This document shows positions 42,549 to 46,676 of a DNA stretch of 64,000 nucleotides, one piece after another. Position 1 is the first letter of the stretch; every line of letters begins with the position of its first letter. The stretch spans positions 10,710 to 74,709 of the forward strand of contig JBBDRO010000106.1 of the NCBI GenBank assembly GCA_040905425.1. The letters run 5' to 3'. The DNA is from Gemmatimonadota bacterium (GTDB lineage: Bacteria; Gemmatimonadota; Gemmatimonadetes; Longimicrobiales; RSA9). The position numbers and the translations under genes are program-made. The notes beneath the pieces were generated by a model. It did not search any database and was not told the DNA's origin. It worked only from the letters and a program-made list of their open reading frames with translations.

Positions 42549-43058
42549 ATGAAGGCCATCGTCCAGCTTCAGGTGAACGGCAGTGCACACGAAGTGGCCG
42601 TGCCCGAGCACTGGACCCTGCTCGAGACGCTCCGCTACGCCCTCGGCCTGACGGGCTCCAAGCAGGGCTGCGACAAGGGCGACTGCGGGGCCTGTACGGT
42701 GCTCGTGGACGGCCGCGCCATCCTCTCCTGCATCACCCCGGTGTGGGACGCCGAGGGCGCCGAGGTCACCACCGTGGAGGGGTTGGCCGGGCCGGGAGCG
42801 CTCCATCCCCTGCAGGACGCCTTCGAGGAACGGGGCGCGGCGCAGTGCGGGTTCTGCACGCCCGGCATCCTCATGTCCTCCTGGGGGCTGCTGCAGCAGA
42901 ACGACGCCCCCACCCTGGAGGAGATCCGCCAGGCTCTGGGCGGCAACCTGTGCCGCTGCACCGGCTACACCAAGATCTACGAGGCGGTGGAGCAGGCGGC
43001 GGCCACGCTGCGGGGTGAGGCGGCGCCTTCGACCCCGGATGCGCGGGCGAACCCATGA
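42549..43058 (+). CDS. Molybdenum hydroxylase small subunit, two [2Fe-2S] clusters (HcrC/CoxS-like)
   Basis: 'GCDKGDCGACTV' (plant-type) and 'CGFCTPG...CRCTGY' (second cluster). 169 aa. Confidence 0.9.
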   Translation: MKAIVQLQVNGSAHEVAVPEHWTLLETLRYALGLTGSKQGCDKGDCGACTVLVDGRAILSCITPVWDAEGAEVTTVEGLAGPGALHPLQDAFEERGAAQCGFCTPGILMSSWGLLQQNDAPTLEEIRQALGGNLCRCTGYTKIYEAVEQAAATLRGEAAPSTPDARANP

Positions 43059-45490
43059 GGCCCGAGGAACTCTCCCCGCGCCAGGCGGAGGGCGCCGCCT
43101 CCCCCGAGCAACTCGAGGCTCTCATGGCCCGGGAATTCGCCGTGGTGGGCCAGCGGGCGCGCAAGGTCGACGGCGCCGGCAAAGTCACCGGCGCTACGGC
43201 CTATACGGATGATATTTCGTTACCATCCATGCTTCACGGCAAGATTCTTCGTTCACCGCACCCTCATGCGCGAATAAAATCCATTAATACCGCAAGGGCG
43301 CAGGAATTGTCCGGCGTTCACGCGGTCGTGACCGGCCAGGATATGCCCGTGACCTACTGCGTGATCCCCTGGACCCGGGACGAGTACCCGTTGTGCGTGG
43401 ATCGTGTGCGTTATATCGGAGACGGCGTGGCGGCGGTGGCGGCGGTGGACGAGGACACAGCGCTCGCGGCGCTCGAACGGATCGAAGTGGACTATGAATT
43501 ACTCGAACCCATATTCGACCCGCACGATGCGCTGAAGGACGGAGCGCCACAGATTCACGAAGCCCGCAAAGCGGGTCGCAACGGTAATATCACAAAGTCC
43601 GTGGATCTGGAATTCGGGGCCGTGAATGACACTATGGCCGACAGTGAAGTAATCATAGACGGTACGTATTATTTCGAGGGCACCACGCATGCTCCCATAG
43701 AGCCGCACTGTGCCATCGGCCACTATGACCCCACCGGCAAGCTCACAGTATGGTCCTCCACACAGGTGCCGCACTATCTCCATCGTGAGTTGGCGCGAGT
43801 GCTGGACCTGGATGTGGGGCGGATACGCGTGATTCAGCCGGCCGTGGGCGGCGCCTTCGGCGGCAAGTCGGAGCCCTTCGACCTGGAATTCTGTGTAGCC
43901 GCACTGTCCATGCGCGCCGGCCGTCCTGTGAAGATCCTCTATACACGCGAGGAGGTCTTCTATTCGCACCGCGGCCGGCATCCGATGCACATGCACTATA
44001 GACTCGGCGCCGACCGTGAAGGGCACATCCGGGCCGTGGATGGGAATATATTGATCGATGGTGGTGGCTACGCATCATTCGGCCTCGTCACGGCTTATTA
44101 TTCGGGACAGTTGTTGACGGCGCCATATACGTTCCCAACCTACCGTTTCCGCTCGACCCGCGTCTATACCAACAAGCCCGCGTGCGGGCCCAAGCGGGGA
44201 CATGGTTCGGTGCAGCCGCGCTTTGCGTTCGAGGTTCAGCTGGACCGCCTTGCGGAGGAGCTGGGTCTGGACCCGATCGAGCTTCGGCGCCGCAACTTCG
44301 TGGGAGAGAATACGCGCACGGTGAACGAACTCCGGGTCACCTCGAACGGCTTCCTGGCCTGCCTGGACGCGGTCGAGGGGGCCAGCGAATGGAAACAGAA
44401 GTTCCGGAAATTGCCCTATGGCCGTGGTGTGGGGGTGGCGGGTTCGTGTTACATCTCGGGCACGAACTACCCGATCTACCCCAACGACATGCCGCAGGCG
44501 GCCATTCAACTCCAGGCGGAGCGCTCTGGCCGGGTGACCGTGCTGACCGGGGCCTCGGAGATCGGTCAGGGGTCCAACAGCATGGTGGCCTATATCGTGG
44601 CGGAGGAGCTGGGGGTGCCGCTCGAGTACATCCGCGTGCATGCCACCGACACCGACCTGACCCCCGTGGACCTGGGCGCGTACTCGTCCAGGGAAACGTT
44701 CATGGTTGGAAACGCATGTTTGGATGCTGCCAGAAAGTTGCGGGATGTCGTGACCGCGGCGGTTGCGGCGGTGTGGGAGACCAGCGCCTCCAGCGTGGGC
44801 CTGGCCGGGGGCTGGGCCTTCGACACGCGGGACACGGCGCGGCGCATGACCATCGCGGAGGCCTTCCAGGCGGCCGAAGCGCGCTCAGGCACGCTGGGAT
44901 CGGTGGGCTGGTACAACACGCCCAAGGACATCCACGGTAGCTACCGCGGCGGTACCATCGGAGCCTCACCGGCCTACTCGTTCACGGCCCATGTGGCGGA
45001 GGTGGAGGTGGATCCCGAGACGGGGTTCGTGAGCGTGGAGCGCATCTGGATTGCTCACGATTGCGGGCGAGCGCTGAATCCGGTCCTGGTGGAGGGGCAG
45101 ATGGAGGGCTCTGCCTACATGGGATTCGGTGAGGCGCTCATGGAGCAGCAGGTCTTCAAGAGCGCGGAGGAGGGGAAGGCGGGTTTACACGATTCGCCCT
45201 CACTGCTGGATTACCGGATTCCCACATCTCTGGACACCCCGCTCATGCGCTCCCTGATCGTGGAGAGCCTGGATCCGGAGGGGCCGTACGGGGCCAAGGA
45301 GGCCGGTGAGGGTCCCCTGCATCCGTCCATACCGGCCATCGCCAACGCCATCTTCGATGCGGTGGGCGTGCGCATGGACGCGCTGCCGTTCGCTCCACCG
45401 CGCGTCTGGCACGCGCTGCAGAACGAAGCCGCGCGGGCCAACTGGCAGCGATCGCGAGGTGGCGCACCGGCACATGTGGCGGCGGACTGA
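43055..45490 (+). CDS. Molybdenum hydroxylase large molybdopterin-binding subunit (xanthine dehydrogenase family; HcrA-like)
   Basis: 'GKVTGATAYTDDI', 'AVGGAFGGKSE' and the C-terminal 'GAKEAGEGPL' are typical of XDH/aldehyde oxidase-family Mo subunits. The ATG overlaps the small-subunit stop (ATGA). Confidence 0.9.
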   Translation: MRPEELSPRQAEGAASPEQLEALMAREFAVVGQRARKVDGAGKVTGATAYTDDISLPSMLHGKILRSPHPHARIKSINTARAQELSGVHAVVTGQDMPVTYCVIPWTRDEYPLCVDRVRYIGDGVAAVAAVDEDTALAALERIEVDYELLEPIFDPHDALKDGAPQIHEARKAGRNGNITKSVDLEFGAVNDTMADSEVIIDGTYYFEGTTHAPIEPHCAIGHYDPTGKLTVWSSTQVPHYLHRELARVLDLDVGRIRVIQPAVGGAFGGKSEPFDLEFCVAALSMRAGRPVKILYTREEVFYSHRGRHPMHMHYRLGADREGHIRAVDGNILIDGGGYASFGLVTAYYSGQLLTAPYTFPTYRFRSTRVYTNKPACGPKRGHGSVQPRFAFEVQLDRLAEELGLDPIELRRRNFVGENTRTVNELRVTSNGFLACLDAVEGASEWKQKFRKLPYGRGVGVAGSCYISGTNYPIYPNDMPQAAIQLQAERSGRVTVLTGASEIGQGSNSMVAYIVAEELGVPLEYIRVHATDTDLTPVDLGAYSSRETFMVGNACLDAARKLRDVVTAAVAAVWETSASSVGLAGGWAFDTRDTARRMTIAEAFQAAEARSGTLGSVGWYNTPKDIHGSYRGGTIGASPAYSFTAHVAEVEVDPETGFVSVERIWIAHDCGRALNPVLVEGQMEGSAYMGFGEALMEQQVFKSAEEGKAGLHDSPSLLDYRIPTSLDTPLMRSLIVESLDPEGPYGAKEAGEGPLHPSIPAIANAIFDAVGVRMDALPFAPPRVWHALQNEAARANWQRSRGGAPAHVAAD

Positions 45491-45662
45491 TGGCGTGGAG
45501 CACGCGCCCGCGGGCGGCGGCAGGCCGACGCTTTCGAGGGCCGGTTCAGCCATTCCTGGGCGGGAGGACTGCGATCAAGACCATAACGGGTACTAGAAGA
45601 TATCGGCTTCAGAATTCCATGATAGACGATGATACGTCAGACACGAGCAGAGGTAGCCGCTG

Positions 45663-46676
45663 ATGCTTCGATTGCCCCGGTATCGCTACGTTCGTCCAAA
45701 CACGCTCGATGAGGCGCTCGGTGCGCTCCATGGCGAGCGCGGGACGGCCATACCGATTGCCGGGGGAACCGACCTCGTACCGAACCTGAAGCACCGACTC
45801 TTCGAGCCCGAGCGCCTGGTCTCCCTGCGCGGGGTCAAGGAGCTCCGGGGGGTCGCTTCCGGCGACGGGTACCTGTGGGTGGGGGCCATGGAGCGGTTGG
45901 CCGATGTTGCCGCTCACCCGGAGGTCCGCCACCATGCCCCGGGTCTGGCCGAGGCCGCCGGTCAGGTGGCGGGTCCTCAGCTCCGCAACATGGGGACACT
46001 GGGTGGCAACATCTGTCTTGATACCCGCTGCACGTATTATAACCAGACGTTTTTCTGGCGCCAGGCGCTTGGCTTCTGCCTGAAGAAGGATGGTGACATC
46101 TGTCACGTCACCAGGGTGGGACGCAAGTGCGTGGCGGCCCATTCGGCCGACACGCCCGGCGCCTTGATGGTGCTGGAGGCGGAGATCGAGCTGGTGGGCC
46201 CGGCGGGGGAGCGGCGCGTTCCGGCCGCTGATTTCTTCGTGGCGGACGGGATCTGGAACACCGTCCGAGCGCCGGACGAACTGGTGACCGGAGTGCGGCT
46301 TCCATTGCGGCCCCTGCGCAGGAGCACCTATCGGAAGCTGCGCCAGCGCGCGAGTATCGACTTTCCCCTGCTCAGCGTGGCCGTGGCCGCGGACATCCAG
46401 GAGGACGCCACGGTGACGCGCATCGGGATCGTGGTGTCCGCGCTGGGCGCGCGGCCGCGGGTGTTGACGGGACTGGAAGACATTGCCGTGGGAAGGTGCT
46501 TTACGGAGGAGGTCGTGCAGGCGCTGGCGGAACGGGCGGAGGCGCAGTGCCGGCCGCTCACCAACATCACTGTGGATCCCACATGGCGGCGGGCCATGGT
46601 TCCCGTGCAGGTGCGCCGTGCACTGCAGGGGCTCAGTGACCCGGACGGATCCGGGAGCCCCGGACGGGGAGCGTGA
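45663..46676 (+). CDS. Molybdenum hydroxylase FAD-binding subunit with an extra Cys-rich (putative [4Fe-4S]) insertion (HcrB-like)
   Basis: 'IAGGTDLVPNLK' is the FAD_binding_5 motif. An inserted loop 'CTYYNQTFFWRQALGFCLKKDGDICHVTRVGRKCVAAH' has Cys at residues 123, 139, 147 and 156. Confidence 0.85.
   Translation: MLRLPRYRYVRPNTLDEALGALHGERGTAIPIAGGTDLVPNLKHRLFEPERLVSLRGVKELRGVASGDGYLWVGAMERLADVAAHPEVRHHAPGLAEAAGQVAGPQLRNMGTLGGNICLDTRCTYYNQTFFWRQALGFCLKKDGDICHVTRVGRKCVAAHSADTPGALMVLEAEIELVGPAGERRVPAADFFVADGIWNTVRAPDELVTGVRLPLRPLRRSTYRKLRQRASIDFPLLSVAVAADIQEDATVTRIGIVVSALGARPRVLTGLEDIAVGRCFTEEVVQALAERAEAQCRPLTNITVDPTWRRAMVPVQVRRALQGLSDPDGSGSPGRGA

Follow-up and report, generated by a model that had tools for sequence, protein, structure and literature searches.

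Does a gene cluster that looks like the operon for 4-hydroxybenzoyl-coenzyme A (CoA) reductase (4-HBCR) encode that enzyme when it turns up in a Gemmatimonadota bacterium, or does it encode a relative with a different task? The cluster lies in a 64,000-nucleotide (nt) stretch of contig JBBDRO010000106.1 (positions 10,710 to 74,709; Longimicrobiales, RSA9), which we call the window, and specifies a three-subunit molybdenum enzyme that belongs to the xanthine oxidase (XO) family. An earlier, sequence-only reading had judged the enzyme to be like HcrCAB, the 4-HBCR of Thauera aromatica, and not a standard xanthine dehydrogenase (XDH) or carbon monoxide dehydrogenase (CODH). That judgment holds up, but likeness is not identity. 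With moderate confidence, we favor the view that an Hcr-like cofactor scaffold is used here by an uncharacterized sister clade whose substrate is probably not 4-hydroxybenzoyl-CoA. The architecture is already known; the enzyme belongs to a large, conserved sister subfamily of 4-HBCR that extends across phyla.

The three genes lie on one strand in the order 2Fe-2S subunit, Mo subunit, flavin adenine dinucleotide (FAD) subunit (C-A-B), as had been proposed, and the list of open reading frames (ORFs) and the Pfam domains agree on it:

42549-43058, plus strand: C, the small subunit (HcrC-like, 169 aa), with Pfam Fer2 and Fer2_2
43055-45490, plus strand: A, the large molybdopterin cytosine dinucleotide (MCD) subunit (HcrA-like, 811 aa), with Pfam Ald_Xan_dh_C, MoCoBD_1 and MoCoBD_2
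45491-45662, no strand: the A-B spacer of 172 nt, a variable junction
45663-46676, plus strand: B, the FAD subunit (HcrB-like, 337 aa), with Pfam FAD_binding_5 and CO_deh_flav_C
46029-46130, plus strand: a four-cysteine loop in B, the predicted [4Fe-4S] site (C-x15-C-x7-C-x8-C; codons read directly)

A 4-nt ATGA overlap joins C to A. All eight cysteines of the two [2Fe-2S] sites in C (41/46/49/61 and 100/103/135/137) align with those of the Thauera chain 1rm6_C, and the subunit has no signal peptide and no twin-arginine translocation (Tat) signal.

When each subunit was searched against all PDB chains with phmmer, Thauera 4-HBCR (1RM6) came first every time: A scored 618 bits (2.9e-184; 311 bits for the next family, CoxL), B 196 bits (1.2e-56; next 124 bits) and C 175 bits (1.6e-50). 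The top NCBIfam models for C, A and B are the Hcr equivalogs TIGR03193, TIGR03194 and TIGR03195, yet all three scores lie below the cut-offs (192 against 257.8, 878 against 994.55 and 281 against 404.55 bits). Against their Thauera counterparts, A, B and C are 42%, 37% and 56% identical, respectively. Models of other families score far lower than Hcr and are below their own thresholds: XdhA, XdhB and PucD gave 554 against 780, 536 against 916 and 449 against 784 bits, the PaoC model NF041671 gave 266 against 1180, and the CoxL model TIGR02416 gave 311 against 991, with the CODH models spanning 311-356 bits overall.

We placed the large subunit in a neighbor-joining tree that had PaoC as its root and was bootstrapped 100 times. 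HcrA grouped with P0138, the Thauera HcrA cluster, in 100% of replicates, and an Hcr-like superclade that unites HcrA with the window clade was recovered in 82%, leaving XDH, aldehyde oxidoreductase and CODH outside. Within the superclade, the window subunit falls outside the clade of characterized HcrA. The window clade joined P0122 in 63% of replicates and was the exclusive sister of HcrA in 0%. With TIGR03194, true HcrA proteins score 1302-1342 bits and every other superclade representative 764-933, which leaves a clean gap. Additionally, an exhaustive search of representatives at 50% identity found about 16 that outscore P0138 against window A. Because of the sub-cut-off scores, the low identities, the score gap and the tree, we conclude that the enzyme, as judged from its sequence, is not an orthologue of HcrCAB and belongs to a paralogous subfamily.

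In other neighbors in the superclade (P0123, P0124, P0129 and P0130), the Mo subunit carries the 2Fe-2S subunit as an N-terminal fusion, giving proteins of about 930-950 aa. These fused-subunit clades come from, for example, Kiritimatiellia and Ignavibacteriales metagenome-assembled genomes, and one of the representatives is NCBI-named Hcr alpha despite scoring 828 bits, under the cut-off of 994.55.

The FAD subunit contains an inserted loop, CTYYNQTFFWRQALGFCLKKDGDICHVTRVGRKCVAAH, that begins at residue 123. Codons for Cys123, Cys139, Cys147 and Cys156 are found at 46029 (TGC), 46077 (TGC), 46101 (TGT) and 46128 (TGC), which gives the 16-8-9 spacing described earlier. The earlier statement that this spacing equals the one in Thauera HcrB proved correct: in the phmmer search, the loop aligns gaplessly, column for column, with 'CTFYNQSEWWRSGNGYCLKYKGDKCHVIVKSDRC' of 1rm6_B, and so matches the HcrB insertion. 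The cysteines of that chain are 122, 138, 146 and 155, the presumed cluster ligands of 1RM6. The pattern is kept in 62/62 complete B subunits of related loci, with the consensus C[TQR][YW]YNQ[TS]xFWRx[AS]LG[FY]CLKKDGxxCHV, and is identical in two HcrB proteins whose loci carry an NCBI-named 4-HBCR alpha. Cys123, Cys139, Cys147 and Cys156 of B are therefore the predicted holders of a [4Fe-4S] cluster, as alignment would have it. Unciuleac et al. (2004) are reported to have found that these cysteines ligate an extra [4Fe-4S] cluster in 4-HBCR and that the cluster supports an inverted flow of electrons. We found no open literature text that names ligand or channel residues of this enzyme.

The insertion also occurs in other enzymes. 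E. coli PaoABC (5G5G) and the aldehyde oxidase of Methylobacillus sp. KY4400 (5Y6Q) are XO-family heterotrimers with an FAD-subunit insertion at the same place, and their chains 5G5G_B (PaoB) and 5Y6Q_B align across it. In a multiple alignment, both share the equivalents of Cys123, Cys139 and Cys156, but their loop is longer and has its fourth cysteine at an earlier point (QPC/SAC), not at position 147. By this comparison, the loop of window B is specifically of the Hcr type and not of the Pao type. These enzymes also differ from that of the window in gene order, A(FeS)-B(FAD)-C(Mo), in their distant large subunits (177-197 bits) and in being oxidative, and the E. coli enzyme is Tat-exported. 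The RefSeq name of PaoB is 'FAD-binding Fe-S subunit', and we found no literature on its cluster. Because oxidative enzymes of the PaoB type carry a related loop, the loop alone does not imply reverse electron flow, which is nonetheless plausible in the window enzyme. An AlphaFold2 model of B has a confident fold, and its Cys loop has a predicted local distance difference test score below 50, as expected for a metal-dependent loop. Foldseek with this model returned 1rm6_B as the top match and scored CODH FAD subunits close behind; since the loop is unmodeled, the search cannot clearly separate the two.

Turning to the catalytic subunit, we inspected the active site of A and found the Mo-site residues of HcrA unchanged. 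The motifs are STQ237, GGAFGGKSE at 265-273, R381 followed by GHG, SGT at 468-470 and E752. The window clade and HcrA share Gln237, Arg381, Gly469-Thr470 and Glu752 without variation, and we take these residues to correspond to bovine Gln767, Arg880, Phe1009-Thr1010 and Glu1261. Ser272, in GGAFGGKS, presumably sits where XDH has its substrate-binding glutamate (bovine Glu802).

Around this common core, the two groups diverge. A comparison of 203 clade sequences with 120 true HcrA proteins identified 213 conserved positions at which both groups have the same residue, and 93 that are conserved within each group but differ between them. The divergent positions cluster at 267-281 (GGAFGGKSEPFDLEFCV in the clade versus GGGFGARTEALHFEIIA in HcrA), at 363-368, at 463-481, which is the loop after SGT (NYPIYPNDMPQ versus STPKHWTGEPH), at 633-646 and at 742-756, which surrounds the catalytic glutamate. 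Additionally, the aromatic residues W345, Y402, Y409, W454 and F468, conserved in HcrA, give way in the clade to T, N, N, P and R. The paper on the 4-HBCR structure reportedly describes an aromatic-lined substrate channel, and in that light the lost aromatics suggest a different substrate. We infer that the substrate channel is remodeled in the window clade.

How far does this clade extend? The closest homologs of A, at 74-94% identity, are hundreds of metagenomic proteins, and those named by NCBI carry the label Longimicrobiales or Gemmatimonadota. JGI names, which are KEGG-based, call the relatives hcrA or hcrB, and NCBI uses generic names only. A taxonomic scan with one genome per species found A at 61-79% identity in Longimicrobiales, Gemmatimonadales, Eisenbacteria, Candidatus Udaeobacter and Limnocylindria, and also in Acidobacteriota, in Polyangiaceae and in many Planctomycetota; the cultured planctomycete Saltatorellus ferox Poly30 carries a member. 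Within the clade, the mean pairwise identity of A is 72%; the clade as a whole shows 58-94% identity. On these comparisons, it is a separate, tightly conserved and uncharacterized clade that crosses phyla. Our searches found no literature on Hcr homologs in Gemmatimonadetes or Planctomycetes, and none that links 2-furoyl-CoA dehydrogenase to Hcr.

The window also holds two genes for cofactor maturation, at 18962-20373, that the sequence-only reading had missed:

18962-19768, minus strand: an XdhC-type chaperone (Mo-cofactor insertion and sulfuration), with Pfam XdhC_C and XdhC_CoxI
19765-20373, minus strand: a MocA-like cytidylyltransferase, with Pfam NTP_transf_3 (2.6e-37)

With a glutamate dehydrogenase (GDH)-like gene (ELFV), they form a trio at 17276-20373 on the minus strand. 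The same trio stands directly upstream of hcrC in relatives such as L001, L002 and L006; in the window, an insertion of about 22 kb of unrelated genes, as seen against those relatives, separates MocA from hcrC (among the genes are methyltransferase, SLT/TPR, BNR/sortilin, PGA_cap, S15 peptidase, beta-propellers, BlaI, BlaR1 and DUF2723). No second XO-family enzyme turned up when the window was scanned with Pfam, and the XdhC there probably serves this one. XdhC and MocA would mature a sulfurated MCD cofactor, with MocA making the cytosine dinucleotide form. The domain set, the eight [2Fe-2S] cysteines, the Mo-site Gln, Arg and Glu, and the presence of XdhC and MocA together mark an XO-family enzyme of the MCD type.

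We examined 85 related loci for genes that travel with the enzyme. C adjoins A in 66 of them and B does so in 65, some of the other contigs being incomplete; XdhC recurs beside the enzyme genes in 17 and MocA in 18. Recurrent neighbors are limited to C, B, XdhC, MocA and lineage-specific synteny, plus a nitroreductase-family gene in Gemmatimonadota. No ligase, thioesterase, transporter or ferredoxin recurs in these neighborhoods, and the substrate therefore cannot be guessed from the surroundings. In hosts other than Gemmatimonadota, C, A and B sit together in a tight operon, and in several cases (Eisenbacteria, Limnocylindria and Udaeobacter) XdhC-MocA comes after it. The layout C-A-B-XdhC is also that of two true hcr loci, L087 and L088, one of which has MocA as well.

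Could the enzyme nevertheless be a genuine 4-HBCR, isofunctional with HcrCAB and supplying benzoyl-CoA to a pathway, anaerobic or box-type, whose genes lie elsewhere in the genome? HcrCAB (1RM6/1SB3; HbaBCD in Rhodopseudomonas palustris) has the same C-A-B order, the same Mo-MCD, two [2Fe-2S] and FAD cofactors, the four-Cys insertion in the beta subunit at identical spacing, the Mo-site Gln, Arg, Glu and SGT motif, and XdhC and MocA beside its genes. Hcr is the best family for all subunits, JGI/KEGG annotation labels the relatives hcrA and hcrB, and the source is a sediment metagenome that may be anoxic. In Pfam scans, the 64-kb window showed no gene for an aromatic-CoA ligase, a benzoyl-CoA reductase or a ferredoxin, as had been noted for the vicinity, and the motif CxxCxxCxxxC[P/G/A] is missing from every frame. 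However, the two true hcr loci also lack ligase and benzoyl-CoA reductase genes within 10 kb, so the missing ligase does not discriminate and its absence from the window proves little. We still consider a true 4-HBCR unlikely. All three subunits score under the equivalog cut-offs, with A more than 400 bits below true HcrA, and A is only 42% identical to HcrA and sits in a separate clade with other host phyla. Unlike HcrCAB, whose motif reads GGGFGARTE, the window has GGAFGGKSE; with this change in GGxFGxx[ST]E come the altered loop after SGT, the five lost aromatics and the rest of the 93 group-specific differences. NCBI gives the relatives generic names only, and the phyla of the clade are not known for anaerobic benzoyl-CoA metabolism. 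An ordinary XDH or aerobic CODH, with a Cys loop that plays no cofactor role, is far less probable still and hardly credible. It would account for the general XO-family domain set, and the CODH FAD subunits do score near 1rm6_B in Foldseek, where the loop is unmodeled. But the scores of XDH and CODH, for models and structures alike, are about half those of Hcr; the CODH active-site loop AYRCSFR is absent from A, where the region reads KPACGPKRGHGS; Ser272 presumably replaces the substrate-binding glutamate of XDH; and four cysteines that are invariant in all 62 relatives across phyla do not look like a functionless loop.

Our preferred account, an Hcr-like scaffold turned to another substrate, leaves two directions to weigh. 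The substrate is most likely another aromatic or heteroaromatic compound, to go by the divergence of A. The cofactor chain would be made up of the Mo-MCD of A, the two [2Fe-2S] clusters of C, and the FAD and extra [4Fe-4S] cluster of B. The surface [4Fe-4S] cluster may be the docking point for a one-electron, ferredoxin-like protein carrier encoded elsewhere, so that electrons would move along the path carrier <-> [4Fe-4S] <-> FAD <-> 2x[2Fe-2S] <-> Mo, and at Mo a ring carbon of the substrate would lose or gain an oxygen atom. In the oxidative direction, the enzyme would be a PaoABC-like hydroxylase or aldehyde oxidoreductase, and its extra cluster an exit to an acceptor protein with no inverted flow. 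This is a possibility to be taken seriously, though we would not bet on it: PaoB and 5Y6Q_B share the insertion site and three of the four cysteines, RefSeq calls PaoB an Fe-S subunit, XdhC points to the sulfurated Mo center typical of hydroxylases, and hosts such as Saltatorellus ferox and Udaeobacter belong to lineages generally known mostly as aerobic heterotrophs. It sits poorly with a loop of the Hcr type, given that the fourth Pao cysteine is elsewhere, with PaoC, XdhA and CODH scores of 266, 554 and 311-356 bits against 878 for Hcr, with a small subunit that lacks a Tat signal, and with the fact that the sole characterized member of the superclade is a reductase. To reductive dehydroxylation, with some compound other than 4-hydroxybenzoyl-CoA as substrate, we give a chance that falls just short of even. 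We lean slightly toward it over oxidation with electrons leaving via the cluster, because a reductase is the only characterized enzyme with the exact loop and the only characterized member of the superclade. Reductive XO-family chemistry is not confined to 4-HBCR, since the Enterocloster urolithin dehydroxylases Ucd and Uxd, of the same family, remove a phenolic hydroxyl reductively (PMC12771579, PMC12658268). By their descriptions, these differ from the window enzyme in their gene orders (ucdCFO and uxdFOC); UcdC is without a [4Fe-4S] cluster, and UxdC carries one in a separate domain.

Several points weigh against our account. Neither direction nor substrate can be read from sequence, which is all by which the clade is known. 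The tree is a neighbor-joining tree only, and support for the window clade hinges on including P0122 (63%). The divergent positions of A were assigned to the channel through motif homology with other XO-family enzymes and not from the 1RM6 coordinates. No gene for a partner ferredoxin lies in the 64 kb. Finally, among the clade's hosts are many from groups known mainly as aerobes, which suits an oxidative role no less than a reductive one.

Even if the direction is left aside, the placement matters for annotation. KEGG-based pipelines label thousands of such genes 'hcrABC', from which metagenome studies then infer anaerobic aromatic degradation. Because these genes form a separate subfamily with a remodeled catalytic subunit, that interpretation is probably wrong for lineages of the Gemmatimonadota and Planctomycetota type, and 'hcrABC' calls there are not evidence of anaerobic 4-hydroxybenzoate degradation. 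With a strictly conserved Hcr-type loop and a cultured member, the clade is also a tractable test of whether an extra cluster is in every case a sign of reductive chemistry in the XO family. A bolder and rather doubtful proposal is that the clade represents a second functional class of 'inverted-flow' XO-family enzymes, carrier-driven reductive dehydroxylases or oxygen-abstracting reductases that act on a common aromatic or heteroaromatic metabolite. If true, chemistry of the 4-HBCR type would reach far outside the classical anaerobic benzoyl-CoA pathway, into Gemmatimonadota, Planctomycetota, Eisenbacteria, Acidobacteriota and Verrucomicrobia.

The immediate neighbors on the C and B sides are DUF2723 (TMEM260-like), EamA and Lrp genes, just as the sequence-only reading had listed them. 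After B, EamA, MR_MLE, ThrC and ThrB follow in the window as in its relatives. The closest relative, L086, whose A is 94% identical, has the same layout of DUF2723, C-A-B and EamA-Lrp-MR_MLE; as it comes from an independent metagenome, the arrangement in the window is real. In the longest ORFs, the 3' ends of hcrB (plus strand) and the EamA transporter gene (minus strand) overlap convergently by 44 nt (46633-46676), an overlap that recurs in L086. The sequence is present in four sediment metagenome DNA runs, and none of the matching runs is RNA.

The A-B junction is less constant. The window has 172 nt here and L086 has 66 nt (12452-12517), and elsewhere in Gemmatimonadota A and B can be up to about 7 kb apart, with other genes in between (for example, L001 12440-15139). 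Among the Gemmatimonadota loci with both A and B, most have a nitroreductase-family gene (PF00881) immediately before B; neither the A-B spacer nor the rest of the window contains such a gene or a remnant of one. We conclude that the junction is a hotspot of insertion and deletion. Under the 'inverted-flow' proposal, the nitroreductase-family flavoprotein might serve as an alternative electron-input module in the Gemmatimonadota that have it.

Some Gemmatimonadota contigs carry a lone large-subunit gene, 76% identical, with no adjacent C or B (L003 10001-12436 and L004 8357-10792). There, the gene flanks an Mrp-type cation/proton antiporter cluster.

The spacers around the genes hold no recognizable signals. 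An Rfam scan of the whole window at the gathering threshold gave 0 matches, hence no molybdenum cofactor riboswitch or other known riboswitch in the spacers upstream of C or between A and B, and a promoter and terminator scan of 42200-46900 found nothing above shuffled expectation. The A gene has a GC content of 63.8% and a third-position GC content (GC3) of 0.77, compared with a GC3 of 0.92 for hcrC and 0.93 for the upstream DUF2723 gene. This low GC3, along with the 61-69% identity of A to proteins from other phyla, could reflect a past horizontal transfer of A, but housekeeping genes downstream span the same GC3 range. A tblastn search of plasmids returned only generic XDH-family matches at <=37% identity.

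Elsewhere in the window, the minus strand at 37930-39890 encodes a BlaI-type repressor followed by a BlaR1/M56 peptidase with C-terminal repeats that resemble the Plug of TonB receptors, a pair also present in L086. Tandem paralogous genes for predicted beta-propeller proteins, with weak matches to DUF5128/SGL, occupy 34363-37930 and 12991-14172.

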